Shown: positions 16,613 to 41,735 of the stretch, piece by piece
Position numbering within the stretch: position 1 is the stretch's first letter
How the letters are laid out: every line of letters starts with the position of its first letter
Source: an uncultured Clostridium sp.
Lineage (GTDB): Bacteria; Bacillota; Clostridia; TANB77; CAG-508
Reading direction: 5' to 3'
NCBI GenBank assembly: GCA_964456505.1
Contig: CAYWAH010000003.1
Span: 1-58,097 of the forward strand
DNA length: 58,097 nt
Notes under the pieces: generated by a model
Told to the model about the DNA's origin: nothing
What the model saw: the letters and a program-made list of their open reading frames with translations, nothing else
Database searches by the model: none
Program-made: the position numbers and the translations under genes

Positions 16613-18169
16613 ATGAGTAATAATGGAACATCAATGGCACATAAAATGGAAAGAGCTGCAGTTAGTGTAATAGTTGATAAAATATTAAAAGATATGGATA
16701 AAGATAGAACAGCAGAATATATGAAACTTATTGATTACGCTGAAAAATTCTATGGAAAGGATTATAAAAAAGAAGATTATGATAAATATCGTAAATTATT
16801 TTCTGATCCTAACAATAGTTTAGTTAAAATCATCAATAGTTTCTTAGATGAAGGAAACCCACATGTAGTAAAAGTAACTCTTATGAACTTACTATATGAA
16901 GCTTTCTTTGCTGGTACAAAACAAATCAGAAAAAATCGTGAAAAATATGATTGTAATATTCCTTGGTTAATCTTATTTGACCCAACAGATGCATGCAACA
17001 TGCATTGTGTAGGATGCTGGTCTGGAGAATATGGTCATAAGAATAATTTAAGTTATGAAGATATGGATAAAATAGTTACTGAAGGTAAAGCATTAGGTGT
17101 CCATTTATATATGATGACAGGTGGAGAGCCTTTAGTTCGTAAAGCTGATATTTTGAAATTAGCTGAAAAACATAATGATTGTGAATTTTCACTTTATACA
17201 AATTCAACTTTAATTGATGAAGATTTATGCAAAGAATGTGTTAGATTAGGGAACATTGCATTCCAATTATCAATTGAAGGCTCTGAAGAAACAAATGATG
17301 CTAGACGTGGAAAAGGCCATTATAAAGCAGTTATGAATGCTATGAAACTTCTTAAAAAATATGGTATTCTATTTGGTGGATCTATTTGCTATACTAGAGC
17401 AAATGTTGAAGCAGTTACAAGTGATGAATTTGTACATATGTTAGCTGATAATGGTATGAAATATGTATTCTATTTCCACTTTATGCCAGTTGGAAAAGGA
17501 TCTACAGTTGATTTAATGCCAACAGTTGAACAACGTAAATATATGATTAAGAGAATTCGTGAAATTAGAAAACCAAGTTATGGATTAGGATTGTTCCCAA
17601 TGGACTTCCAAAATGATGGTGAATATGTAGGTGGTTGTATTGCTGGTGGAAGAAACTACTTCCATATCAATGCATCAGGCGAAGCTGAACCATGTGTATT
17701 TATTCATTATTCTAATGCAAATATTCATGACAGCTCTATTCTTGAAATATTAAAGAGCCCATTATTCATGGCTTATCACTATGATCAACCATTTAATGAG
17801 AATCATTTACGTCCATGTCCAATGCTTGAAAACCCAGAAGTATTAGGAAAATTGGTTAAGGAAACAGGCGCTCATAATACAGATAAGCAAGCACCTGAAA
17901 CACCAGAAGAATTAGCAAAGAAGACAGTTCCTTATGCTGAAAAATGGAAGCCAGAGGCTGAAAAGATTTGGAAAGAAGAGAATAAGGGAGAAAGATATCA
18001 CAAGACAAAGGGTAGATATCTAAACTATTCTAAAGAATATATGGCTAAACTTGAAGCAAAAGAAGCCGAAGAAGAAGCCAAAGAGGAATCTAAAAAGACA
18101 GCGAAGAAAACAACTACAAAATCTACTAAAAAAGACACAAAGAAAAAAACTAAAGTTAGCTCAAAATAA
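16613..18169 (+). CDS. Radical SAM protein with C-terminal Fe-S (SPASM/twitch-like) domain and Lys/Thr-rich tail
   Basis: 'DPTDACNMHCVGC', 'TGGEPL', 'GCIAGGR..PCVF', 'RPCP'; tail KKTAKKTTTKSTKKDTKKKTK. Confidence 0.9.
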   Translation: MSNNGTSMAHKMERAAVSVIVDKILKDMDKDRTAEYMKLIDYAEKFYGKDYKKEDYDKYRKLFSDPNNSLVKIINSFLDEGNPHVVKVTLMNLLYEAFFAGTKQIRKNREKYDCNIPWLILFDPTDACNMHCVGCWSGEYGHKNNLSYEDMDKIVTEGKALGVHLYMMTGGEPLVRKADILKLAEKHNDCEFSLYTNSTLIDEDLCKECVRLGNIAFQLSIEGSEETNDARRGKGHYKAVMNAMKLLKKYGILFGGSICYTRANVEAVTSDEFVHMLADNGMKYVFYFHFMPVGKGSTVDLMPTVEQRKYMIKRIREIRKPSYGLGLFPMDFQNDGEYVGGCIAGGRNYFHINASGEAEPCVFIHYSNANIHDSSILEILKSPLFMAYHYDQPFNENHLRPCPMLENPEVLGKLVKETGAHNTDKQAPETPEELAKKTVPYAEKWKPEAEKIWKEENKGERYHKTKGRYLNYSKEYMAKLEAKEAEEEAKEESKKTAKKTTTKSTKKDTKKKTKVSSK

Positions 18170-30494: not shown

Positions 30495-30526
30495 AAAAAA
30501 GTTGGAAACTATTTTCCAACTTTTTT
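30495..30526. terminator. Bidirectional terminator
   Basis: AAAAAAGTTGGAAA-CTAT-TTTCCAACTTTTTT. Confidence 0.7.
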
Positions 30527-31398
30527 ATTTCTCATTCTTATGTTGCTTCAAAAGGCCAATCATAAGCCCAGTGTTTTCAAATATAAATGTTTGAATATAT
30601 GGACCACCTTGATTGTTGTAGACTGTATCCATTTCTGTTGTTGGAGAGCATGGATTACTTTTAATAAACTCTGTATAATCTTCATATTTTCTACCAGTGT
30701 AATCTGCTGGTTCAGCTCTCTTTTTTAACTTTTTCTTTTTGGTTATTTTTCTTGAAACTTTTCTTCTTAAGTCAATATTTGTAATTCCCCAATCTTTAAA
30801 AAGACCCATTTCAATGTATGTATAAATTGTTTTAGCACATTGTGTAATTTCCCTATGATTTTGTAAAATCGTGTAAATTGACTGTCCCTGTTTAATTAAA
30901 GGGCATATGATGTGTGCTAATTCATAAAGCTCAGTTGTGTTCAAATTTACACCAATTCTCGAATCTTTTAATGTGTATTCATATTTTTTCTGTGCAACCT
31001 TTGCATAATAAAAATATTTGGCTTTTTTACATGTTTTAATGCTTGGACAATTATTACATGCACCAACAAAACGATCTCTTCTAAAACATGGAATTTCTTC
31101 AAAGCTTTGACATTTACTAATACAAATTTTACATTCATTAAAATGTTTACACATCCATGGAGAGTCATCAATTTGTGAATATCTACGTTGCCTGTATTTT
31201 CTAATTTCTTTTCCAATTGCTGATTGACTTTTCTGTATTTCATTTGCTGTTTCATATTTTCTTTTTCCTTGGATAATATTGGTTTCAATATGCATTCTAT
31301 CTTCAAGTGAAAGATGTTTTCCATCATTTATACTCATAAAACCTTCTTTCCCAAGAAACACCTGTAATATAATTATACCACTTTCTTTTAATCTTACA
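30525..31398 (-). mobile_element. Truncated IS30-family element; transposase 31337-30525, C-terminal DDE region lost
   Basis: 'KHLSLEDRMHIE..G...A..I.KSQSAIGKEIRK' HTH, Cys-rich insert, 'LRRKV', 'EMDTV' (first catalytic D), then an abrupt end. Candidate left end TGTAAGATTAA at 31398 on the minus strand. Confidence 0.85.
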
Positions 31399-31560
31399 AT
31401 AAGCATATATGTAAGATTAAAATTTAATTGTTTTAAATCAAATAGAATTTACTTTTTCATTTGACTTTATCAAAAATTAACTACAATTTAACATTAAAAT
31501 ACTTTACTTTAGGGCAAAAACATGGTAAAATATAGGTGCTTGATAAAAAGGAGTGATTTT

Positions 31561-32322
31561 ATGGAAACAATTTTAAAAAAACCATCACTGTATAATTTAT
31601 TGTATAAAGATGTAACAGAAGATATTAATTTATACAAAGTATTATTAAAAAACTATAAAGAGATAGTTGAATATGGTGCAGGGACAGGTAGAATTACTAT
31701 TCCTATAGCTCAAGAAGAAAAAAAAGTCATTGCAATAGATAATGAATCTAATATGTTAGATGATTTAAAGTTTAAAGTAAAAGAAATGGGATTAGAAAAA
31801 AATATTATTCCAATAAAAGCTGATATGATAACTTATGTATGTGATAAAAAAGAAAAGTGTGTTATTATGCCACTCACAGTCTTTAATTATATATTGGATG
31901 ATAAAGAACAAGAAGAATGCTTGAAAAATATAGGTAAATACTTAGAGAGAGATGGCACTCTTATAATAGAATTATTAACTAAAAAAACCTTTTTGGACTT
32001 AACAGAAAACTCTGAAAGTAATTTAGAATATATAAAAAAAATAAAAACAAACGATGGGTATTATGAATACTGGAGAACAACAACATTTGATAAAAATACA
32101 AATCTTATTGAACAGAGAAGAGTTTTTAAACATTTTAACAAAGAAAATAAAAATGATAGTCAAGAAGAATTTATATGGAAAAACAAGTTTATAACATATA
32201 ATACTATTAAACAAGAACTTGAAAGAAATAACTTTGTAATTGAAACAGCTTATGGAAATTGCAAATTAGATCCATATAATGAAGATAGTGAAGATTTATT
32301 TATTAAGGCTAAAAAGGTCTAA
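31561..32322 (+). CDS. Class I SAM-dependent methyltransferase; first gene of the RiPP-like cluster
   Basis: Motif I 'IVEYGAGTGRITI', 'AIDNESNML', 'YLERDGTLIIEL'; RBS AAGGAG. Confidence 0.9.
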   Translation: METILKKPSLYNLLYKDVTEDINLYKVLLKNYKEIVEYGAGTGRITIPIAQEEKKVIAIDNESNMLDDLKFKVKEMGLEKNIIPIKADMITYVCDKKEKCVIMPLTVFNYILDDKEQEECLKNIGKYLERDGTLIIELLTKKTFLDLTENSESNLEYIKKIKTNDGYYEYWRTTTFDKNTNLIEQRRVFKHFNKENKNDSQEEFIWKNKFITYNTIKQELERNNFVIETAYGNCKLDPYNEDSEDLFIKAKKV

Positions 32323-32369
32323 TAAATAAATTTCATTATATAAAATTTTAAAATAGGAGGAAAAATATT

Positions 32370-32468
32370 ATGAAATCAATTAATGAAAAAGTTGTATCAG
32401 TAGAAAAAATTTCTTCTGTAAGTGCATCTTGCATGTATCATAGTGTTTCTTGCATGTACCATGCATAG
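32370..32468 (+). CDS. Putative RiPP precursor peptide, 32 aa: MKSINEKVVSVEKISSVSASCMYHSVSCMYHA
   Basis: Manual translation. Strong RBS AGGAGG 9 nt upstream; duplicated core SCMYH (TCTTGCATGTATCAT / TCTTGCATGTACCAT); immediately upstream of an rSAM/SPASM gene. Confidence 0.85.
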   Translation: MKSINEKVVSVEKISSVSASCMYHSVSCMYHA

Positions 32469-32475
32469 GTGAGAC

Positions 32476-32507
32476 AAAAGATGGGCAAGATAGTTTGTCC
32501 ATCTTTT
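32476..32507 (+). terminator. Stem-loop after the precursor gene (leaky terminator or mRNA stabiliser)
   Basis: AAAAGATGGGCAA-GATAGT-TTGTCCATCTTTT. Confidence 0.7.
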
Positions 32508-32537
32508 CATTATAATTTTAGAAAGAGGGAATTAGTT

Positions 32538-33884
32538 ATGAAATTAATAAATGAAATTCAATTTGTAAGAATAAATGATAATGAGATAGTAATGTTGAAT
32601 CTTATAAATGCTGCAGCAGATATTCTTGATAATGATACATATGAGAAATTGACTAATGATATAGATTCATTAGATGAGAGTATTATAAAAAAATTAAAAG
32701 AGAGAAAATATGTTTTTAATAGTGAAAATGAATACAATGAATATTTAAGTAAATTAAACACAGCAATTGACATTGCTCAAAAAAATAGTCCTCCTTGCTT
32801 TTTAGTCGTTCCAACATATAATTGTAATCTTCGATGTACTTATTGTTATGAGAGAACATATAGAATAGAGAATATAAAAGAAAACAATATGATACAAATA
32901 ATAGATAGACAATTTGAGGTAATAGATGATGTAGTTAATAAATACAGAAAAACAAATATTAAGGATTTTGATTCAAATTGTATCAGGATTACAATCATGG
33001 GAGGAGAACCTCTATTAAGGGTTAATAAAAAAATTATTGAATATATATTTAAAAAGGTTAAAGAAAGAAAATATACAATTGATATTGTAACTAATGGCGT
33101 AGATTTAGACTATTTTATTGACATATTAACTGATGATTGTGTAGATCATATTCAAATTACATTAGATGGATCAAAAAATATACATGATAAGAGAAGAATA
33201 TTTGCTGATGGAAGAGGTAGTTTTACTAAAATAATAAACAATATTGGATTAGCATTAAAAAATAATATTAAAATTTACTTGAGAGTAAATGTAGATAATG
33301 ATAATTTAAATGATTTACCAGAATTAGCAAAAATACTAGTACAAAGATTTAATAATGATGAAAATTTAAACCCATATATATATCTTTTGCAAGATGGAGG
33401 ATGTTCTGGAGATGCAAATGTTGTCAAAGAAGAAGTAGGAATTGATAAAGTATATAAATTAGAGCATGAATATCCACAGATGAAAATTTTTAGAAAAAAA
33501 TTTCATCCAGAAATGTATATTAATTCTATATTACAAAATACTGAATTTCAACCAGTACTAAGACATTGTGGAGCTGCAATTAATCAATATATTCTAGATT
33601 ATAAGGGCAATATATATAGATGCTGGCATGGAATAGGAAATGATGGTTACAGAACAGGAAGATATATTCCTACAATAGAAGAAGATAAAGATAAAAATGA
33701 AAAATGGGATAAGAGATCAGTATTAAATCTAAAAAAATGTAAAAATTGTAAATATAGGTATATATGTGGAACAGGATGTCCTGCAGCAACCCATAAAGGA
33801 GAAAAAGAATTTGACATTGAAAAAGAAAGCTGTGTTGATTATGAAGGATTGATTGATACTATAATCAAAGAAAAAATAAAATGA
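32538..33884 (+). CDS. Radical SAM/SPASM peptide maturase with probable N-terminal RRE-like domain
   Basis: 'PTYNCNLRCTYCYE' (CxxxCxxC), 'MGGEPLL', 'IQITLDG'; SPASM 'HCGA..YRCW', 'CKNCKYRYICGTGCP..SC'; ~85-aa N-terminal extension. Start at ATG 32538 after GAGGG. Confidence 0.93.
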   Translation: MKLINEIQFVRINDNEIVMLNLINAAADILDNDTYEKLTNDIDSLDESIIKKLKERKYVFNSENEYNEYLSKLNTAIDIAQKNSPPCFLVVPTYNCNLRCTYCYERTYRIENIKENNMIQIIDRQFEVIDDVVNKYRKTNIKDFDSNCIRITIMGGEPLLRVNKKIIEYIFKKVKERKYTIDIVTNGVDLDYFIDILTDDCVDHIQITLDGSKNIHDKRRIFADGRGSFTKIINNIGLALKNNIKIYLRVNVDNDNLNDLPELAKILVQRFNNDENLNPYIYLLQDGGCSGDANVVKEEVGIDKVYKLEHEYPQMKIFRKKFHPEMYINSILQNTEFQPVLRHCGAAINQYILDYKGNIYRCWHGIGNDGYRTGRYIPTIEEDKDKNEKWDKRSVLNLKKCKNCKYRYICGTGCPAATHKGEKEFDIEKESCVDYEGLIDTIIKEKIK

Positions 33885-33895
33885 GGTGATTGCAA

Positions 33896-35962
33896 TTGAA
33901 TGATAAAGAAATAATGACTTTAGGAGTATTTGCTCATGCAAATGCTGGCAAAACTACAATAACTGAAAATTTATTATATGACACACATGTAATTAATGAA
34001 ATAGGCAGAGTCGATTCTGGAAATACAGTAACTGATTCTATGAAAGTTGAAAAAGAGAGAGGAATTACAGTTAGATCTTCTTTAGTTTCTTTTGATGCTG
34101 AAGGAAAAAAAGTACAATTGATTGATACTCCTGGACATGTTGACTTTTCGGCAGAAGTTGAAAGAGCAATTAATGTGTTAGACGGTGCTGTACTTGCAAT
34201 TTCAGGTGTAGAGGGTGTTGAAGCACAGACATATACTATATGGAATGCGTTAAAAGAAAAAAAGGTTCCAACTATATTTTTTATAAATAAAATGGATAGA
34301 GTAGGTGCTGATTATGAAAGAACGATTAACGAGATAAAAGAAAAATTGCAAGTACCAATAGTATCATTGCAAAAGATAGAAACAAATGATGATAAAATAA
34401 TAATTAAGGATTTAACCAATGAACAAATTGTTGAGCAATTAACGTCAATAGATGATGATAATGTTGATGACTTAATAGAAAAATATTTAAATGATCCTAA
34501 TAGTTTATCTACTGAAGAAATAAACCAAAGAATAGAAGAATTATCAATAAGTGGAAAAATCAATATTGCTATTGGAGGAAGTGCCCTTAAAAGTATAGGT
34601 ACAAATGAATTAGTACATTATATCTCTAAATATTTACCAAGTACTCAGAGAAAAATAGAAGATGAATTCTCTGCATATGTTTATACTGTGAGAGTTGAAG
34701 ACAATGGACAAAAAAACTTATATGTAAAGGTGTTAACTGGTGAAATTTCACCAAGAGACACAATTAAAATGGATGATGAAGATAATGAAGCTAAAATAAA
34801 AAATACATTTATTTCAGATGGAAAAGAAATCGTAAACACAGATTACTTAAAAAGTGGCGATATCGGAATTATAACAGGAATAGATGCAAAATGTGGGCAG
34901 TTACTTGGTAGTCAAAAAGAAAAAAATAAATATGTAAGTTTCGTAAAGCCTTTAATAAATATGGAAATAGATGCTAAAGAAAAAAATCAAGTTATTAAGT
35001 TGGTTGAAGCATTAAAAGTTTTAAATGATGAAGATCCATATTTAAATGTTAGATATTCTAAGAATACTAGAAAAATATACATGAGTTTAATGGGAGAGGT
35101 TCAAGCACAAGTAATAGAAGAAATGTTAAAAGACAGATTTAGCATTGATGCTACCATTTCAAAACCAGTTATAATTCATAAAGAAAAGCCGATAAAAAAA
35201 GGAGTTGGTGAAGCTTACTATACAAGAGTTTCAGGATTAAAACTTGAAATAGAACCTTTACCAGAAGGCAGTGGATTCCACTATAAATCTGATTTATCTA
35301 CAGATTATTTGCATAAGAAATATCAAAGGCAAACAGAAAGATTAGTTAATAAATATTCTAAACAGGGGCTATATGGATGGGAAGTAACAGATGCAGAAGT
35401 AAGGCTAGTAGATGGAAGATTTGACTCAATGGGGTCTGAACCAAAACATTTTAATATTGCAGTACCGCTCGCATTTATGAGAGCATTAAAAGATTCTGGG
35501 GTGGAACTTCTTGAACCAATAAGCTCATACTCAATTATAGTTCCAAAAGAAAATTTGAATAATGTAATACAACTATTATCAAAAAAAGAGTCTAGCTTTG
35601 AAATAGATGAAACAATGGAACATAATGTGAAAATAACTGGAGAAGCACCATTGGATTTGATGTCTAATTTTCCAGTAGAATTAAACAAATTAACTTCAGG
35701 AAGAGGAATATATAGTCAAAATGTAGAAAAATATATGCATTCACGTGAACAAGATAAAGAGTGTCCATATATTGGACCAGATCCTAGGAATGAAGTTCCT
35801 TTCGTAATAAGTGATATGGGAGCAAGTTTGGATTATCTTGATCCAGTTAGAAGCAAGAAAAAGAAAGTAAGTAGAGCAAAATTTAAAAGAGAAAGAAAAG
35901 AAAAGCAAATCAGAGAAGAAAAAAAAAGAACAAGATTTGAAGGGATAGATAGAGATGATTAA
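33896..35962 (+). CDS. TetM/TetO-like (EF-G paralog) translational GTPase, putative ribosome-protection protein
   Basis: 'LGVFAHANAGKTTITENLLY', 'ERGITV', 'IDTPGHVDF', 'NKMDR', 'LNDEDP', 'ELLEP'; domain IV layout of the Tet RPP clade. TTG 33896 is best spaced from GAGGTG (ORF track starts at 33890). Confidence 0.85.
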   Translation: MNDKEIMTLGVFAHANAGKTTITENLLYDTHVINEIGRVDSGNTVTDSMKVEKERGITVRSSLVSFDAEGKKVQLIDTPGHVDFSAEVERAINVLDGAVLAISGVEGVEAQTYTIWNALKEKKVPTIFFINKMDRVGADYERTINEIKEKLQVPIVSLQKIETNDDKIIIKDLTNEQIVEQLTSIDDDNVDDLIEKYLNDPNSLSTEEINQRIEELSISGKINIAIGGSALKSIGTNELVHYISKYLPSTQRKIEDEFSAYVYTVRVEDNGQKNLYVKVLTGEISPRDTIKMDDEDNEAKIKNTFISDGKEIVNTDYLKSGDIGIITGIDAKCGQLLGSQKEKNKYVSFVKPLINMEIDAKEKNQVIKLVEALKVLNDEDPYLNVRYSKNTRKIYMSLMGEVQAQVIEEMLKDRFSIDATISKPVIIHKEKPIKKGVGEAYYTRVSGLKLEIEPLPEGSGFHYKSDLSTDYLHKKYQRQTERLVNKYSKQGLYGWEVTDAEVRLVDGRFDSMGSEPKHFNIAVPLAFMRALKDSGVELLEPISSYSIIVPKENLNNVIQLLSKKESSFEIDETMEHNVKITGEAPLDLMSNFPVELNKLTSGRGIYSQNVEKYMHSREQDKECPYIGPDPRNEVPFVISDMGASLDYLDPVRSKKKKVSRAKFKRERKEKQIREEKKRTRFEGIDRDD

Positions 35963-36962
35963 TTTTGAAAACACTAAACCATTAAGTTATGAAGAATTAT
36001 TAGAAATTGAAAATAAAATTTATGACAAAGAGTATATTGATGAAAAAACTCAAAAAACAGATATAAATTTGAATGAAGTATTATCCAGGAAAACGGAAAT
36101 ATTTAAAGATAAAACATATAATTTGCCACAAAATATTTTTTATATTGACAATTATAAAGGAAAAGTAGTAGTTGGAAGAAAAATTAGGTCAGTTTTAAGC
36201 TTTGAAAATAAAATAAATGCGATACACTGCAGTATGATAACGAGCTCAATGCTTTTAGGATTCTTAAAAAAAGGATTTCAAAGAGAAAAAGATGTAGAGG
36301 TAGAATATTATCCTCTAAAAAAATCTGAAAAAATAACAGCATTTGATGAAATAAAAAATAATAAAAATTCTGATATTTATTTTCCATTTAAATATTTAGA
36401 CTATTACACAAATGAAGAAGAAAAATCTCCAGATACTGGCTGGGATTTAAATCCTGCAAAAGTTATATATCTAGGATATGGAGAAGAACATATTAGAAAA
36501 TATACAATAAATTTTATAAAGCCATATATGAAAGATGGAACCATTATATTCGATCCAGCATGTTCTACAGGTCAATTTTTACATACTATAAAGAAATATT
36601 ATCCAAGTTGTAAAACGATAGGTCAAGATTTAAGTAAAGAAATGGTTGATTATGCTAAAGACTATGTCGATGAAATTTATTGTGGTGATTCAATAAATAC
36701 AAAAATAAAAGATGAAAGTGTAGATATTGAATTTTTTCGATTTTTGAATTCAGAAGTTGTTACAACTGAATATGCATATTTACTTTTTGAACATTTATAC
36801 AAAAAAGTAAAAAAAAATGGAATAATTGTAATATTTGGACATACCCCTGTTTTAATGAAGAAAGAATTTTTTATAAAACTTGGATTAAAAGTAGTACAAT
36901 CAATTGCATATGATAAAGATTATGATTGTATTTTTCAATATTATGTGTTAAGGAGAGTATAA
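35955..36962 (+). CDS. SAM-dependent transferase, methyltransferase fold; resembles 3-amino-3-carboxypropyl transferases of the isonocardicin synthase (Nat) type
   Basis: SAM motif 'FDPACSTGQFL', 'TIGQDLSKEMV', 'CGDSI', 'RFLNSEVVT', 'GHTPVL', 'FQYYVL'. The Nat resemblance is from recalled motifs, not a search. Confidence 0.7.
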   Translation: MINFENTKPLSYEELLEIENKIYDKEYIDEKTQKTDINLNEVLSRKTEIFKDKTYNLPQNIFYIDNYKGKVVVGRKIRSVLSFENKINAIHCSMITSSMLLGFLKKGFQREKDVEVEYYPLKKSEKITAFDEIKNNKNSDIYFPFKYLDYYTNEEEKSPDTGWDLNPAKVIYLGYGEEHIRKYTINFIKPYMKDGTIIFDPACSTGQFLHTIKKYYPSCKTIGQDLSKEMVDYAKDYVDEIYCGDSINTKIKDESVDIEFFRFLNSEVVTTEYAYLLFEHLYKKVKKNGIIVIFGHTPVLMKKEFFIKLGLKVVQSIAYDKDYDCIFQYYVLRRV

Positions 36963-36964
36963 TA

Positions 36965-38065
36965 ATGGAAGAAACATATAACCCTAATAAACTCATAATT
37001 GATAGAAGTGCAATTGAATTCAACATAGATAATATTAGAAAGCATCTTGGAAAAAATGTTGAATTGATGCCTATAGTTAAGGCTAATGCATATGGAGTAG
37101 GGATTAATAATATTTTGCCAATTTTAGTAAAAAAGAATATAAAAAGCATAGGTGTTGCAAATGTAAATGAAGGAATAATTGCAAGAAAAGAGTTCAAAGG
37201 ACAAATATTAGTTTTATTGCAACCACTAGTACAACAAATTCCGGAAATAATAAAAAATAAGCTAACAATAAATGCATGTGATTATAACTTTTTATATGTG
37301 TTAAATAAGAAATCTGAAACTAACAATATAGTTTCAGAGGTTCATATAGAAATTGATACAGGAATGGGACGAACAGGTATTAAAATTGAGGATATAGATG
37401 AGTTTTTAAACAAAATTAAGAATTTACAAAATATAAAAGTAGTTGGCATATCCTCTCATTTATCATCAAGTGGAAATAATGAAGAATATTCGTATTTTCA
37501 AATTGAAAGATTCAAGCAAGCAATAAGTATCTTTAAATTGAAAAAAATTCAATTAAAATATATTCATATTTATGCAAGTGGAGGAATATTAAAATATCCA
37601 ATTAAATTTTCAAATATGGCGAGAACTGGAATTATGATTTATGGATATTATCCAGGAAAAAATAAAAATATAAAGTTATTCCCTGCTCTAAAACTTATGA
37701 CAAAAATAAGCTATATCCATACTGTAAAACATGGCGAGTATATAGGATATAATTGCATTTATAAAGCAAAAGAAAACAGGAGAGTTGCAGTCATACCTAT
37801 TGGATTTGCGGATGCACTTATGGGATTAGAAAGCAATATTGGTTCTGTTATGGTAAAGAATAAAAAAGCAAAAATAATTGCAATTTGCATGGATACTATG
37901 ATAATAGATATTACAAATATAGATAATGCTAAAATAGATGATGATGTTGTTTTATGGGATAATGATGATATAACATTAGAACAATGGGGAGAGTGGACTA
38001 ATACAAGTAATTATGAAGTGTTATCAATATTATCTAATAGAATAGAAAGAAAAATGATAAATTAG
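36965..38065 (+). CDS. Alanine-racemase-family PLP enzyme (divergent; possible tailoring epimerase)
   Basis: 'VKANAYG' PLP lysine, 'HIEIDTGMGRTG', 'RTGIMIYG', 'GEYIGY' (catalytic Tyr position), 'ICMD', 'NYEVL..RIER'. Confidence 0.9.
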   Translation: MEETYNPNKLIIDRSAIEFNIDNIRKHLGKNVELMPIVKANAYGVGINNILPILVKKNIKSIGVANVNEGIIARKEFKGQILVLLQPLVQQIPEIIKNKLTINACDYNFLYVLNKKSETNNIVSEVHIEIDTGMGRTGIKIEDIDEFLNKIKNLQNIKVVGISSHLSSSGNNEEYSYFQIERFKQAISIFKLKKIQLKYIHIYASGGILKYPIKFSNMARTGIMIYGYYPGKNKNIKLFPALKLMTKISYIHTVKHGEYIGYNCIYKAKENRRVAVIPIGFADALMGLESNIGSVMVKNKKAKIIAICMDTMIIDITNIDNAKIDDDVVLWDNDDITLEQWGEWTNTSNYEVLSILSNRIERKMIN

Positions 38066-38134
38066 AGTAAATGAAAAAACTGTCCTTCTTTTATTTAAGT
38101 GTTTTTTTATAAAGCTAATGAAAATGGAGTAAAA

Positions 38135-39796
38135 ATGTTAAGGGTTGAAAATATTTCAAAATCTTATAATGGAAAAGATATCTTAAATAATATAAGTTTC
38201 TCTTTGGATGAAGGAGAAAAAGCAGGAATTATTGGATTAAATGGAATTGGAAAAACAACATTATTAAGAATAATTGCAGACGAGGAGAAACCTGATTCAG
38301 GAAAAATAATTAAAGATAAAAATAGTCTTATAGGATACTTTAAACAAGAATTTAAAATATCTGAAGAAGATAGGAATATTGTGAGTTTTATAAAAAAATT
38401 TATAGGAATAGATGTTATTGAAATACATATGAACGAAGCTGAAAAAGCAATGGAAACGGATGAAAGTAAGATTCAAGAGTTTTGTGATTTACAGGAAGAA
38501 TATATGAGACTAGATGGCTATAATATTGATTATAAACTAGATCAAATATTATCTGGACTTGGATTAGATAATACAATTAAAGAAAAGAAAATATCTGAAC
38601 TTTCAGGAGGACAAAAAGAAAAAGTAATGCTTGCAGCTGTTCTTTTAAAAGGAACAGATTTACTTTTGTTGGATGAGCCAACAAATAATTTAGATATAAA
38701 ATCAATAAATTGGTTGGAAAAATATCTAAAAAACAATAATTCACCAATGCTTATTGTATCACATGATAGAAGATTTTTAGATGATGTAATTACCAAAGTT
38801 ATGGAAATAGATTTTTATACTAGAAATATGAAAGAATATCCTGGAAATTATAGTGAGTACAAAAAATTTAAGGAAGATGAACAAAATGCTCAACTTAGAA
38901 AATACAATGAACAACAAGAGAAGATTGGAGAACTAAGAAAAAGCATTACTCAAAAGAAGGAATGGGCACAAAAAGGAAATAAGCAAGGAGTATCTGATAA
39001 CGATAAGTATACGAGAGGATATATTAGGGATAGATCACAAGGGTTAGCAAGTAATGCAAAAAAAATTGAATCTCAAATTAGCCAAATGAATAAAATAGAA
39101 AGACCTAAAATAAAGAACAAATTACATATTGATATAAATGGAGATAAAACAAAAGGAAATAAAAATATTGACACAAAAGACCTTGTATCTGGATATGAGG
39201 ACGGATTTAAAAATGAGCCAGTTACTACACATATAAAATATGGTGATAGATTAGTTATCATAGGTGATAATGGTTCAGGAAAATCAACTTTTTTAAGAAC
39301 TTTGATTGGAAAACAAAAACCAATTTCTGGTGAACAAAGCATAGGCAGTGGAGTAAAAATAGGTTATTTAGCACAAGATACAAAAGAAAATACAAATGAA
39401 ACGATAGAAGATTACTTCAAGAAATCAATTAACTATGCTAATTTAGAAGATAAATCTTTAATTTATACGGTACTTAAACAATTCAATTTTGATTACGAAG
39501 AAAGAACAAAAAAATATTCTATGTTAAGTCCAGGAGAAAGGGCTAGATTAAAATTAGCAATTTTCTCGATGCAAGATATAAATACTCTTGTTTGCGATGA
39601 ACCAACGAATCATTTGGATATAGAAGCATTAGAAGCTATTGAAGAAGTACTTAAGGATTTCGACGGAACAGTTATAGCAATAAGTCATGATAGAGAATTT
39701 ATAAAAAATATAGACCCAACTAAAGTTTTAAAATTTTCAGATGGAAAAGTAGAAGTAATTTATCACAAAGATCAAGATGATAAAACAATACTATAA
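38135..39796 (+). CDS. ABC-F family ribosome-associated ATPase (ribosome-protection-like)
   Basis: Tandem NBDs ('GLNGIGKTT', 'LSGGQK', 'LLDEPTNNLD'; 'GDNGSGKST', 'LSPGER', 'CDEPTNHLD'), no TM segments, long inter-domain linker. Confidence 0.92.
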   Translation: MLRVENISKSYNGKDILNNISFSLDEGEKAGIIGLNGIGKTTLLRIIADEEKPDSGKIIKDKNSLIGYFKQEFKISEEDRNIVSFIKKFIGIDVIEIHMNEAEKAMETDESKIQEFCDLQEEYMRLDGYNIDYKLDQILSGLGLDNTIKEKKISELSGGQKEKVMLAAVLLKGTDLLLLDEPTNNLDIKSINWLEKYLKNNNSPMLIVSHDRRFLDDVITKVMEIDFYTRNMKEYPGNYSEYKKFKEDEQNAQLRKYNEQQEKIGELRKSITQKKEWAQKGNKQGVSDNDKYTRGYIRDRSQGLASNAKKIESQISQMNKIERPKIKNKLHIDINGDKTKGNKNIDTKDLVSGYEDGFKNEPVTTHIKYGDRLVIIGDNGSGKSTFLRTLIGKQKPISGEQSIGSGVKIGYLAQDTKENTNETIEDYFKKSINYANLEDKSLIYTVLKQFNFDYEERTKKYSMLSPGERARLKLAIFSMQDINTLVCDEPTNHLDIEALEAIEEVLKDFDGTVIAISHDREFIKNIDPTKVLKFSDGKVEVIYHKDQDDKTIL

Positions 39797-39840
39797 ACTT
39801 TGAGAAACAATAAAAATATTAAAAAGAAGGTAAATATATT

Positions 39841-40482
39841 ATGGATAAGAAAAATTTAGAAAACATGAATGTTATTTTTGCAACCAGTAATCAAGGTAAA
39901 ATTAATCAGGTAAAAGAGATTTTTAAATTAAATAATGTGTTACTAAATATAAAATCAGAGAAGGAAATTAATTTTAATGAAGAGGTAGTAGAGGATGGTC
40001 AAACATTTGAAGAAAATTCTAAAATAAAAGCACTAACATTAAAACAATTTTGTGATAAAAATAAAATAAAGTATGATATGATTTTAGCAGATGATTCTGG
40101 AATATGCGTAGATGCTTTAAATGGTGAACCTGGAGTGTATTCAGCAAGATATGCTGGTAAAACTAAAACCAGTCAAGAAAAACTTGATTTTATTTTAAAT
40201 AAAATGAAAAAATACAAAACATCAGATGAAAGAAAAGCTCATTTTGTTTCTGTTATTACTGCGATATTTAAAGATGGTAAACTAATTCAAACTCGCGGAG
40301 AATGCAATGGACATTTGGCTGATCATTACAATGTTATTTGTAGATTAACATATAATCCTATATTTATTCCAGAAGGTTTTGACAAACCAATAGGAGAAAT
40401 GAGTGAAGAAGAATTTAAGAACGTTCACAATCATAGAGAAATTGCATTAAGAAAACTATTTGATTTACTATATAAAATGTAA
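39841..40482 (+). CDS. Non-canonical purine NTP pyrophosphatase family (RdgB/HAM1/ITPase), divergent
   Basis: 'FATSNQGK', 'EDGQTFEENSKIKA', 'ADDSG..VDALNGEPGVYSARYAG'; the usual FGYDP and SHR motifs read LTYNP and NHR. Confidence 0.88.
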   Translation: MDKKNLENMNVIFATSNQGKINQVKEIFKLNNVLLNIKSEKEINFNEEVVEDGQTFEENSKIKALTLKQFCDKNKIKYDMILADDSGICVDALNGEPGVYSARYAGKTKTSQEKLDFILNKMKKYKTSDERKAHFVSVITAIFKDGKLIQTRGECNGHLADHYNVICRLTYNPIFIPEGFDKPIGEMSEEEFKNVHNHREIALRKLFDLLYKM

Positions 40483-40752
40483 AAGATTGCAATAAAAAAG
40501 TAGATATAGATAAGTGTATATATAATAAAACTGATGAAATCTAAAAGAGAGGTAGAGAAGTAGGCAACTAGACAGCGATAGGTTTATAAAAAATAAAATG
40601 TATAATTGCGTGAAACCAAAGTATTCTCCGCGAATAAAGTTGCGTGAAATTAAACTTTTGCGCAACTTGAAGTAGGAGTTAATATAACTGACTGAAATGC
40701 TTGTAAAATCTATATTTTAAGGAATAAACCTATATTGTTTTTTTCTAAAAAC

Positions 40753-41172
40753 GCCTTAAAATCGATTCTCGTGCGTCGCTTTTTTGGCGTTATTACTGCA
40801 TTTTCAGCATTTAAGCTAAATCCAGTATTTTTAGAAAAATTTCATATACATACATATTAAATTAAATTATTTTAAATCAAATTTAGATTCCAATAAATAT
40901 TCTAACGATTAACTTTATAACTTTAATAATTAAATGGCTTAAAAACGATTCTGGTGCGTTCAAATTATAAAATTATTTTAGAACTCATTATATTAATTTG
41001 ATCATTATAATATTTATAAATCATCAATTATAAATTTCTAATTTAAAATTAGTTTTCTAAAATCTTAAGCTTATTAGTAAAAATCTTATAAATCCAATAA
41101 ATACGCAATTTACAGACAACAAGTTATATGTCTAATTTTTTAAAATGGCTTAAATGCGATTCTCGAAAGCCG
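40753..41172. repeat. Three dispersed ~22-bp direct repeats in a 1.2-kb non-coding tract
   Basis: GCCTTAAAATCGATTCTCGTGCG (40753), GGCTTAAAAACGATTCTGGTGCG (40936), GGCTTAAATGCGATTCTCG (41147). Confidence 0.6.
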
Positions 41173-41735
41173 TTTTTTAGGCATACTTATTGAATTTGTA
41201 GGTTTTCAAAAATTATATAACAAATGTTCGTCTTTGACATTTTCTTGTTTGGAAATTAAAAATTTTCTTTGCTGAACAAATTTTAATATATTTATAAATT
41301 ATTTTAGAAAAGAAAATTTTTTTAATCATATCATTTTATATTTAACTTCACTTTATATTTAGCTTAATTTAGTTTAATTTCATTTTATTTCACTTCATTT
41401 TATTCTACTTTTAATATATTTACAAATGATTTCTGCTGTTTCATTGTTTCCAATTTCTGAATCTATGCATAAATCATAATTCTCCTTACTTCCCTACTCC
41501 TGTTTTTCATATGAAAAATTATTTGTTAACCTAAAAACTATATTGTTTTCGCTAATACTCCTGCTTTTAGATAAAACATCATTTGTTAACACTTTAATTT
41601 TTTCGTTATATGATTTTCTAAGCATAAAGGCGCTTCTGCCATTTTGTTTTTTTCTTTCATTTTAAACCTCCTAAACGCAAAAAAATAGTATGTAAATATT
41701 TAAAATTTACAATCGCATTTTAGTTGCTATGTAAT

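Follow-up and report, generated by a model that had tools for sequence, protein, structure and literature searches.

We consider it likely that the product of the gene studied here is a working ABC-F ATPase belonging to a distinct, as yet unnamed subfamily, that the gene is not part of the C-x-Y-H peptide cassette beside it, that the partner of its clade is a module made up of a GCC peptide and a radical-SAM enzyme, and that the present copy has been orphaned from that module. The gene lies in a window of 58,097 nucleotides, the whole stretch of DNA analysed, from an uncultured Clostridium sp. (Table 1).

Table 1. Coordinates of the ABC-F gene, its parts and its neighbors in the window
Feature	Positions	Strand	Basis and remarks
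C-x-Y-H peptide cassette (context, outside the ABC-F unit)	31561..38059	+	Gene content: MTase, 32-aa precursor, rSAM/SPASM, TetM-like GTPase, second SAM enzyme, Alr-like enzyme
Junction of two separately conserved DNA blocks	38060..38107	.	Homology limits, terminator scan, fold
Shine-Dalgarno GGAG	38126..38129	+	5 nt upstream of the ABC-F ATG; read from sequence
ABC-F gene, 553 aa	38135..39796	+	ATG 38135, stop at 39796; ORF and translation
ABC-F parts, in order			NBD1 with arm subdomain, long alpha-helical interdomain linker, NBD2, C-terminal tail of ~37 aa
Linker hairpin (ARD/PtIM equivalent)	38849..39085	+	Secondary structure of the AF2 model
RdgB/HAM1-type NTP pyrophosphatase	39841..40482	+	PF01725 match; TIGR00042 134 bits versus a cut-off of 145

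The sequence-only reading had described the product as a soluble tandem-NBD ABC-F, which is borne out by the intact ORF, by two ABC_tran domains and an ABC_tran_Xtn domain (residues 229 to 327) in Pfam, and by the absence of any Pfam membrane domain. Soluble tandem NBDs, an alpha-helical linker and the lack of a transmembrane domain, which together define the ABC-F class, are thus all found in the product of the window gene. Both NBDs contain an intact Walker A, signature, Walker B with catalytic Glu, and H-loop, and the sequence ggagt directly before the ATG is common to this gene and its relatives L042, L223 and L033. In a Foldseek search, the AF2 model (mean pLDDT, 85) best matched the ribosome-bound structures of PoxtA, VmlR2, EttA and YbiT. 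The top 25 matches are all ABC-F factors (EF3 included), mostly ribosome bound, and the Foldseek search against PDB did not tell resistance from housekeeping ABC-Fs.

Classification with ABC-F subfamily HMMs, which the sequence-only reading had proposed, placed the protein outside the housekeeping clades, with no specific ARE or housekeeping cut-off reached. The NCBIfam model NF000355 (ribosomal protection-like ABC-F) was passed with 437.3 bits (cut-off, 380), but this broad model also passes in 8 of 14 control genomes. The housekeeping models remained far under their cut-offs (score/cut-off: EttA, 313/599; Uup, 288/900; YbiT type, 327/762), as did the named ARE models (Vga, 307/725; CplR, 307/780; Sal, 271/725; Msr, 263/680; producers [NF000171], 301/800; OptrA, 241/1450; Lsa, 238/750). 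In the ARE numbering, we take Vga, Msr and CplR to be ARE1, VmlR/VmlR2 ARE2, Lsa ARE3, Sal ARE6 and OptrA ARE7. Phylogenetic analyses revealed that the protein sits in its own 20-row clade (support, 99/95), separate from EttA, Uup, YbiT, YheS, Vga/Msr, Lsa, OptrA, PoxtA and VmlR2. A sister grouping with Vga/Msr was weakly supported (60) in the first tree and was lost in the fuller tree, and the gene was therefore left out of ARE1. The source genome has its own YbiT orthologue (G000:C24), and the housekeeping role falls to that YbiT-like paralogue. By these sequence comparisons, the protein is a member of an ABC-F clade that is undescribed and caught by no named model, and its linker is of the resistance type.

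The distance from the H-loop of NBD1 to the Walker A of NBD2 is 168 residues, versus 140 in EttA, 143 in YbiT, 142 in Uup and 142 in YheS. Among resistance ABC-Fs, the same distance is 142 in OptrA, 151 in PoxtA, 172 in Lsa(E), 175 to 176 in Msr(A/D/E) and 175 in VmlR2. The extended linker claimed from the sequence, the quoted text of which (QQEKIGELRKSITQKKEWAQKG...LASNAKKIESQI) corresponds to residues 259 to 316, is therefore real, and by length it is of the kind (ARD) with which ARE-ABCFs are able to reach the peptidyl-transferase centre. In the AF2 model, the linker hairpin consists of helix a1 (residues 239 to 283; 45 residues), a loop (residues 284 to 290; QGVSDND) and helix a2 (residues 291 to 317). 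The family signature DNDKYTRGYIRDR occupies residues 288 to 300, a stretch absent from EttA, YbiT and Uup in the alignment. Across 35 clade members with identities down to 42%, nine residues never vary: K275, W277, A278, Q284, D288, D290, K291, G295 and R298.

Association with the GCC-peptide module

The module with which this clade is associated consists of a 50- to 63-aa peptide with the core E-x-GCC[LF][RT]SCGG[SKV]P, an RRE-radical-SAM/SPASM enzyme of ~411 aa (rSAM411) and an ABC-F. A full-length ABC-F is adjacent to the enzyme in all eight rSAM411 lineages, drawn from three sequence searches only and ranging from Clostridia to Candidatus Falkowbacteria, versus none of 75 unrelated rSAM loci (Fisher p=2.5e-11). 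The three genes occur in four orders (peptide-rSAM-ABCF, rSAM-ABCF-peptide, ABCF-peptide-rSAM, and divergent), and the identities of enzyme and ABC-F drop in step (60/60, 49/46, 47/47 and 43/38). Seven of the eight partner ABC-Fs fall inside the clade of the window gene, the exception being that of L147, which has a long branch. The partner linkers are all 167 to 172 residues long, and the signature DNDKYxRG[YF]x[RK]DR is common to the ABC-Fs adjoining the module, including the Candidatus Falkowbacteria copy. The window protein has the clade position, linker length and signature of these module-linked ABC-Fs. By sequence, the clade thus appears to be the regular genomic partner of the GCC peptide and rSAM411, whatever the gene order.

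The idea that an ABC-F may land beside any radical-SAM cluster was also considered and is ruled out by the 75 unrelated rSAM loci together with ~24 C-x-Y-H cassettes, none of which has one. Among the NCBIfam models, none fits the GCC peptides, and rSAM411 comes closest to the mycofactocin maturase (92 bits versus a cut-off of 265). Neither an exporter nor a leader protease is evident in the module, a lack that would be unusual for a secreted antibiotic and that speaks against an immunity reading. When 399 genomes of the class were searched with an rSAM411 profile, no further member was returned; four candidates per genome were scored, with low sensitivity, and the result therefore shows rarity at most. 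A literature search found no paper tying an ABCF to a RiPP.

The window gene is closest to a copy in L223, with 96.6% DNA identity (99 to 100% across the central 1 kb). That copy lies immediately behind the 3' end of an rSAM411 gene, on a contig that is otherwise unrelated to the window and carries a serine recombinase gene. Genome-wide, both rSAM411 and the GCC peptide are absent from the source genome (G000). The window gene therefore appears to be a recently orphaned copy, both partners having been lost from the source genome. It is under strong purifying selection (dN/dS, 0.09). Such solitary copies are common in the clade: every rSAM411 observed had its ABC-F, whereas the ABC-F often occurs by itself (L038 to L042, L034, L064 and L067), and L064 is the L135 locus with the peptide and enzyme deleted. 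Orthologues with 70 to 96% identity were found in four other genomic contexts, and close relatives have the gene in operons that also contain housekeeping genes such as Ham1/MazG and efp.

An antibiotic-responsive leader is usual, not obligatory, for ARE-ABCF genes. No such leader (uORF with terminator or attenuator) was found in the 69-nt gap before the window gene, an observation that also speaks against immunity; the corresponding gaps in its close relatives are 40 to 85 nt. The search was extended to relatives with 60 to 62% identity and upstream gaps of 600 to 725 nt. The gap of L064, which is long because the peptide-rSAM pair was deleted there, contains no terminator, and in that of L067 there is a terminator-like hairpin, which may serve only to terminate the preceding gene. 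Rfam families were not detected upstream of the ABC-F in the relatives. Most characterized ARE-ABCF genes are controlled by a leader uORF or attenuator (PMC10201436).

Possible functions of the ABC-F clade

The asymmetry between an enzyme that always has an ABC-F and an ABC-F that is often alone fits the behavior of an immunity gene. We tentatively propose that the most likely role of the clade would be target protection against the radical-SAM-modified GCC peptide. The mechanism would be that of established ABC-F biology, as known from the structures of EttA, VmlR, VgaA, LsaA, MsrE and PoxtA. In the ATP state, the protein would bind the ribosomal E site, and its helical hairpin would extend along the P-site tRNA up to the peptidyl-transferase centre, where it would reset the centre or displace a bound inhibitor; ATP hydrolysis would then free the factor from the ribosome. 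Given such a role, the source genome would have the ABC-F as an orphan immunity gene, transcribed by read-through from the promoter of the neighboring cassette. A more specific version, possible though doubtful in our estimation, is that the clade is a dedicated ribosome shield for a radical-SAM-crosslinked GCC[LF][RT]SCGG.P peptide acting at the peptidyl-transferase centre or exit tunnel, with the window copy providing orphan immunity in a non-producer against the peptide of its neighbors.

If the GCC peptide targets the ribosome, it would represent a new class of translation-targeting RiPP, and the ABC-F would be a ready-made self-resistance marker for genome mining, as well as a mobile rumen and gut gene that annotation pipelines will name merely "ribosomal protection-like." If the shield proposal is true, this would be the first RiPP with ABC-F target protection as producer immunity, ranging from gut and rumen Clostridia to CPR bacteria. 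The source genome also has another peptide module, equipped with a TetM-like GTPase of its own; the two together would then point to a wider, unrecognized pairing of small modified peptides with private translation-factor paralogues.

Alternatively, the protein may be a generic intrinsic ARE-type ABC-F against drugs of the peptidyl-transferase centre and exit tunnel (PLSA, macrolides and phenicols), with its linkage to the GCC module being regulatory or incidental. The ARE-length linker, the score with NF000355, the match to VmlR2 in sequence and to PoxtA and VmlR2 in fold, and the mobility of the gene among rumen and gut Clostridia, as seen from its near-identical copy on the serine-recombinase contig, are consistent with this explanation. 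However, we regard it as unlikely, since the specific ARE models and the Vga/Msr grouping fail as described above, an antibiotic-sensing leader is missing, an Lsa-like ABC-F is already present in the source genome, and chance poorly explains an order-independent linkage to the peptide-rSAM pair.

It seems rather unlikely that the protein is a translation helper relieving stalling on nascent sequences, such as the acidic/Gly-Cys-Pro-rich GCC precursor, or an LmrC-like signal transducer switching the module on. Remodeling of the peptidyl-transferase centre when templates are difficult is an activity of housekeeping ABC-Fs (bioRxiv 10.1101/2023.06.15.543498; PMC12421871), and LmrC, a regulatory ABCF for lincomycin, provides a precedent for signaling (PMC8546547). 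The exporterless module, the purifying selection on orphan copies and the operons shared with Ham1/MazG and efp would suit either function. However, a dedicated 550-aa factor for a single 57-aa peptide seems costly, the linker is 25 to 28 residues longer than those of all characterized housekeeping ABC-Fs measured, and the orphan copies would be left without a client.

The junction with the C-x-Y-H cassette

The sequence-only reading had placed the ABC-F in the same operon as the C-x-Y-H cassette, and physically this is accurate. The gene follows the Alr-like gene on the same strand, and the 69-nt gap contains no terminator-like site and folds no better than shuffled sequence. A promoter scan gave 74 sites versus 80.7 expected and is therefore uninformative as to whether the ABC-F has its own promoter. 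However, the DNA homology shows that two blocks meet here. Homology of the cassette to L043, L044 and L069 extends from 31556/31561 to 38050/38059, and homology of the ABC-F block extends over 38108 to 40488 with L042 and over 38123 to 39784 with L223. The junction retains no trace of the hairpin present in relatives. The RdgB gene accompanies the ABC-F block, its protein being 88% identical to that encoded 3' of the ABC-F in L042, and it was found in no cassette locus elsewhere.

Cassettes and the ABC-F are also distributed independently. Within the available flank, none of ~24 cassettes elsewhere, in other genomes and other phyla, has a full-length ABC-F; the loci without it comprise L043, L044, L045 and ~20 further contig loci. 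These contigs gave no match when scanned with a single cassette rSAM query, but a profile search of them did work. Of 15 genomes with the cassette, a single one has a member of the ABC-F clade, with 43% identity and on another contig. Among 61 related genomes, the source genome alone has the cassette rSAM, and two other genomes of the genus have the ABC-F and lack the cassette. A dedicated GTPase is present in every cassette copy.

These results do not agree with the earlier view of the ABC-F as a second protection gene of the cluster, one that could point to the target of the cassette product. Of the two findings named beforehand as counting against that view, placement in a housekeeping clade was not obtained, whereas a lack of synteny elsewhere was. 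The supposed link to a radical-SAM peptide holds for the family and not for this cluster, as it concerns a different peptide system that is absent here. The comparison of sequences indicates that the ABC-F adjoins the cassette by chance, where two independently mobile blocks abut. That the ABC-F functions in the C-x-Y-H/rSAM/TetM-like cluster as a second gene for self-resistance, guarding the 50S subunit as the GTPase guards the 30S, is very unlikely and appears largely refuted by the block limits, the missing co-occurrence, the four other contexts of its orthologues and the cassette's own GTPase, even though read-through is likely, the linker is of ARE length, and both proteins are kin of ribosome-binding factors. 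Because co-transcription is possible, the cassette may make some functional use of the ABC-F in this strain. Both the ABC-F and RdgB genes lie outside the cluster boundaries, and the ABC-F is no guide to the target of the cassette product, which removes a misleading clue.

Comparison with known systems

Like VmlR and VmlR2 of Bacillus and Neobacillus (PDB 6HA8 and 8BUU), the window protein would be a soluble tandem-NBD E-site factor. VmlR2 is its second-best match in both PDB sequence (246 bits) and fold, their linkers are nearly equal in length (175 versus 168 residues), and a W-x-x-K motif aligns at the end of linker helix a1; the VmlR linker is 8 residues shorter than that of VmlR2 (PMC10201436). 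However, the window protein and VmlR2 share only 28% identity over the Foldseek alignment and are not joined in the tree, and the window protein has a full-size arm (175 residues from Walker A1 to H-loop1 versus 134 in VmlR2). It differs from VmlR and VmlR2 in lacking the long C-terminal extension and the attenuator leader and in the signature of its loop and helix a2 (DNDKYTRGY.RDR).

Actinomycete producer ARE-ABCFs (LmrC, VarM, OleB, CarA, SrmB, TlrC and Ard1) likewise accompany genes for bioactive products and are thought to protect, or signal from, the ribosome of the producer (PMC8546547, PMC10201436). Their clusters make small molecules (lincosamides, macrolides, streptogramins and nucleosides), whereas the present clade is partnered with a Cys-rich peptide that is made on the ribosome and has a radical-SAM maturase, and the producer model NF000171 is not reached.

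The protein shares its fold, and an arm subdomain of the same size, with Escherichia coli YbiT, EttA, Uup and YheS, and YbiT is its best PDB sequence match (253 bits) with the best TM-score (0.72). It is set apart from these housekeeping factors by its longer linker, at which the HMMER alignment to YbiT is broken, with residues 281 to 302 outside both aligned stretches. In bacteriocin systems, classical immunity is provided by small membrane proteins or ABC exporters and not by factors that act on the ribosome. The likeness of the clade to orphan bacteriocin immunity genes would be one of distribution only, with producer genes never without the protector and the protector often alone, in varied contexts and under purifying selection.

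The ABC-F gene and its family

The ABC-F gene of the window is an intact ORF with a GGAG 5 nt before its ATG. A longer start at GTG 38099 is unnecessary; relatives have an MLRVEN/MLKIEN start and "ggagt" directly before the ATG. According to Pfam, the protein contains ABC_tran twice and ABC_tran_Xtn once (229-327) but no membrane-like domain, and its catalytic motifs are all intact. It scores 437 bits on NF000355 (ribosomal protection-like ABC-F), a broad NCBIfam model with a cut-off of 380. The feature named in the sequence-only reading is real. The specific NCBIfam models all fell far under their cut-offs, both those for resistance (bits/cut-off: Vga 307/725, CplR 307/780, producers 301/800, Sal 271/725, Msr 263/680, OptrA 241/1450, Lsa 238/750) and those for housekeeping proteins (EttA 313/599, Uup 288/900, YbiT-type 327/762). 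Sequence scores in the PDB were 253 bits for YbiT, 246 for VmlR2, 238 for EttA, 232 for YheS, 230 for PoxtA and 212 for Uup, about equal distances from each of them.

The host genome (G000; 1.17 Mb in 75 contigs, of which the window is C3; 28% G+C, completeness estimate of 99.5%) encodes three ABC-Fs: the window's, a YbiT-like copy at contig C24 and an Lsa-like copy at contig C1. The C24 protein groups with E. coli YbiT (support 100/100; PRK15064, 664/762), and this type is found in nearly all 60 relatives. The housekeeping slot is thus filled by that gene; the window's gene falls outside the housekeeping clades, in a clade with support 99/95. The Lsa-like protein groups with Lsa(E) (support 100/100; NF000167, 708 bits, cut-off 750), which makes it a candidate determinant of intrinsic resistance to lincosamides, streptogramin A and pleuromutilins. 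Close orthologues of the window's ABC-F occur in 2 of 36 other species-level genomes of the genus (G028, 86%; G016, 70%), in which the gene is therefore accessory.

Coordinates of the features, with protein identities of the module lineages to the queries
Feature	Position	Enzyme identity	ABC-F identity
ABC-F ORF, 553 aa, ATG to stop	window 38135-39796 (+)
C-x-Y-H cassette: MTase, 32-aa precursor, rSAM/SPASM, TetM-like GTPase, second SAM enzyme, Alr-like enzyme	window 31561-38059
IS30-like remnant	window 30525-31406
Non-coding tract, ~1.25 kb	window 40483-41735
Radical-SAM protein, 518 aa	window 16613-18169
Module	L061:4427-7677
Module (L135-137, L143)	L135:4735-7930	60%	60%
Module (L138-139)	L138:5001-8124	47%	47%
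Module (L140-142, Candidatus Falkowbacteria)	L140:3165-6248	43%	38%
Module	L144:1612-4989	49%	46%
Module	L145:2188-5230	42%	34%
Module	L146:3798-6890	39%	32%
Module	L147:1993-5200	37%	29%
Serine recombinase/resolvase gene	L223:2421-3701
Serine recombinase/resolvase gene	L138:4211-4822
Lsa-like ABC-F, 497 aa (L001)	G000:C1:43717-45174
ABC-F, 614 aa, Bacillus cereus plasmid NZ_CP135061.1	L050:401-2245

A module of GCC peptide, radical-SAM enzyme and ABC-F

The ABC-F gene recurs at 91% protein identity in L038-L042 (a bovine metagenome included), following cmk-acyltransferase, MazG-like and Ham1 genes and sometimes followed by the same RdgB gene, and at 70% in G016, after efp and a terminator. 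At 86% identity, in G028 and 23 metagenome contigs, it follows a 57-aa ORF and a gene for a 411-aa PqqD/RRE-radical-SAM/SPASM enzyme (rSAM411). The closest relative, in contig L223 (96.6% DNA identity; 99-100% over the central 1 kb), lies directly after the last 28 codons of an rSAM411-type gene and has a serine recombinase gene on its 3' side. Recombinase neighbours, and the fact that L223 and G000 have nothing in common besides the ABC-F gene, suggest transfer between strains, either of the ABC-F or of the module as a whole. Serine recombinase/resolvase genes adjoin two copies of the module. Another locus, L064, equals the L135 locus minus peptide and enzyme, with the ABC-F retained. In G028 the module occupies the position corresponding to the window's 518-aa radical-SAM gene, which therefore looks like a variable spot. 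This gene comes after UDP-sugar pyrophosphorylase and hexapeptide-repeat genes, and its product, which matches no NCBIfam model at E<=1e-40, has a C-terminal tail rich in Lys.

In total, 75 homologues were found with the 411-aa enzyme as the query. Several lay on contigs equal in length to contigs with ABC-F homologues, and the gene neighbourhoods of the rSAM411 lineages confirmed the link with ABC-F. The module consists of three genes: one for a 50-63-aa peptide whose core, E-x-GCC[LF][RT]SCGG[SKV]P, was found in every module locus, one for the enzyme of ~411 aa and one for an ABC-F whose linker has 167-172 residues, including in proteins that have lost the arm. The genes are arranged in four ways (peptide-rSAM-ABCF, rSAM-ABCF-peptide, ABCF-peptide-rSAM and ABCF divergent from peptide-rSAM), and the hosts range from Clostridia of the rumen and gut to Candidatus Falkowbacteria. 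An adjacent ABC-F was present in 8/8 rSAM411 lineages, versus none full-length within 4 kb of 75 other rSAM/SPASM loci from the same metagenome scan (Fisher p=2.5e-11). At least four lineages (L223, L033, L135 and L144) have a stem-loop between the enzyme and ABC-F genes.

In a maximum-likelihood tree of 48 rows, seven of the eight partner ABC-Fs fell into the 99/95 clade with the window's gene, and partner-less copies were nested inside it; the eighth (L147) formed a long branch near Uup/EttA. The dN/dS of the window's gene was 0.09 against both the partner-less 91% copies and the partnered G028 copy. Neither the rSAM411 gene nor the GCC peptide is present in G000. The window's gene is thus a copy orphaned recently, and the peptide-linked ABC-F subfamily to which it belongs is undescribed.

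It is well established that antibiotic clusters of actinomycetes can contain ABC-F genes. Neither the GCC peptide nor its enzyme has a model in NCBIfam or Pfam, the best NCBIfam match of rSAM411 being mycofactocin maturase (92 bits, cut-off 265), and no ABCF-RiPP link was found in the literature searched, including a review of translation-targeting RiPPs; in these sources the module is undescribed. The Bacillus cereus plasmid ABC-F, also with a 168-residue linker and outside the window's clade, lies directly 3' of a non-ribosomal peptide synthetase gene and may be a self-resistance gene of that cluster.

The neighbouring C-x-Y-H cassette

The cassette genes, upstream of the ABC-F, make up a unit that is widely conserved. 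Homologues of the cassette rSAM, accompanied by that GTPase and the second SAM enzyme and often by the Alr-like enzyme, were found at ~24 loci (L043, L044, L045, L069-L087, L095-L097). These represent eight or more phylum-level groups, CPR bacteria among them, with hosts among Clostridia, Bacilli, Erysipelotrichaceae, Muribaculaceae, Flavobacteriales, Bdellovibrionota, Cyanobacteriota, Peregrinibacteria and Absconditicoccaceae. Each has a small precursor with a C-x-Y-H-x end, sometimes duplicated (CHYHI, CMYHA, CDYHV, CCYHV or CKYHV); the window's precursor ends in SCMYHSVSCMYHA. More distant relatives of the rSAM (36-42%) are without the GTPase, and their precursors end in CVYCMK, CQYCMK or CGYNAG.

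The ABC-F had been read as a candidate second ribosome-protection gene of this cluster, but the proposed membership is wrong. No full-length ABC-F was found in the flanks (up to 10 kb, as available) of the ~24 loci, a whole-genome search found a clade member in 1 of 15 cassette-bearing genomes (43% identity, on another contig), and among 61 relatives only G000 has the cassette rSAM. The cassette, flanked by the IS30-like remnant, aligns at the DNA level with three other cassettes from 31556/31561 to 38050/38059, and the ABC-F alignment starts at 38108 against L042, where it includes the RdgB gene (to 40488), and at 38123 against L223. Two separately conserved blocks thus meet at a junction of ~50 nt, and the RdgB gene is part of the ABC-F block, not of the cassette. 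No terminator is predicted in the junction, so read-through transcription is likely, and it is only in this sense that the two share an operon. The non-coding tract after the RdgB gene has 23% G+C; relatives (L042) carry there a 245-aa ORF with no match in G000.

Putative role and linker structure

Alongside the observed family, architecture, conservation and linkage of the ABC-F, the favoured role, by analogy, is to protect the ribosome, the putative target, from the GCC peptide in its matured form. As in solved ABC-F-ribosome complexes, the protein in its ATP state would occupy the E site, its hairpin would follow a displaced P-site tRNA as far as the peptidyl-transferase centre, and ATP hydrolysis would release it. 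Alternatively, the ABC-F may be an ARE that confers drug resistance, may assist translation of the GCC precursor or may transduce a signal as LmrC does (PMC8546547). Target protection is favoured because the enzyme was never seen without ABC-F and the ABC-F is often alone but still under selection, the pattern of protector genes of toxic products. Against it, the module lacks both an exporter and a protease, and no antibiotic-sensing leader precedes the gene. The functional class first proposed is plausible.

Reference sequences were taken from plasmid records (Vga(A), Msr(A/D/E), Lsa(E), OptrA, PoxtA and Uup), E. coli K-12 (EttA, YbiT and YheS) and a PDB alignment (VmlR2). Counted between the H-loop of NBD1 and the Walker A of NBD2, the linker has 168 residues, versus 140 in EttA, 142 in Uup and YheS and 143 in YbiT, which bears out the extended linker reported earlier; OptrA has 142, PoxtA 151, Lsa(E) 172, VmlR2 175 and Msr(A), Msr(D) and Msr(E) 175-176. 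A length of 167-169 is held in relatives down to 43% identity. VmlR has 8 fewer ARD residues than VmlR2 (PMC10201436), so the window's linker is about as long as that of VmlR. The NBD1 arm is full, with 175 residues from Walker A1 to H-loop1 as in EttA and YbiT, against 116-134 in Lsa, Msr and VmlR2. An AlphaFold2 model from 35 clade members (mean pLDDT 85) predicts that the linker forms two helices (239-283 and 291-317) with a loop (284-290) between them; its Foldseek matches are ribosome-bound ABC-Fs of both resistance and housekeeping types, between which the search does not discriminate.

Besides the ATPase motifs, the linker tip is the best-conserved part, with K275, W277, A278, Q284, D288, D290, K291, G295 and R298 invariant in the clade set (42-95% identity). 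The signature DNDKYxRG[YF]x[RK]DR, common to the partner ABC-Fs, lies where the loop passes into helix a2, and in VmlR2 the resistance-critical contacts to U2585 and A2450/A2451 are at the start of linker helix a2 (PMC10201436).
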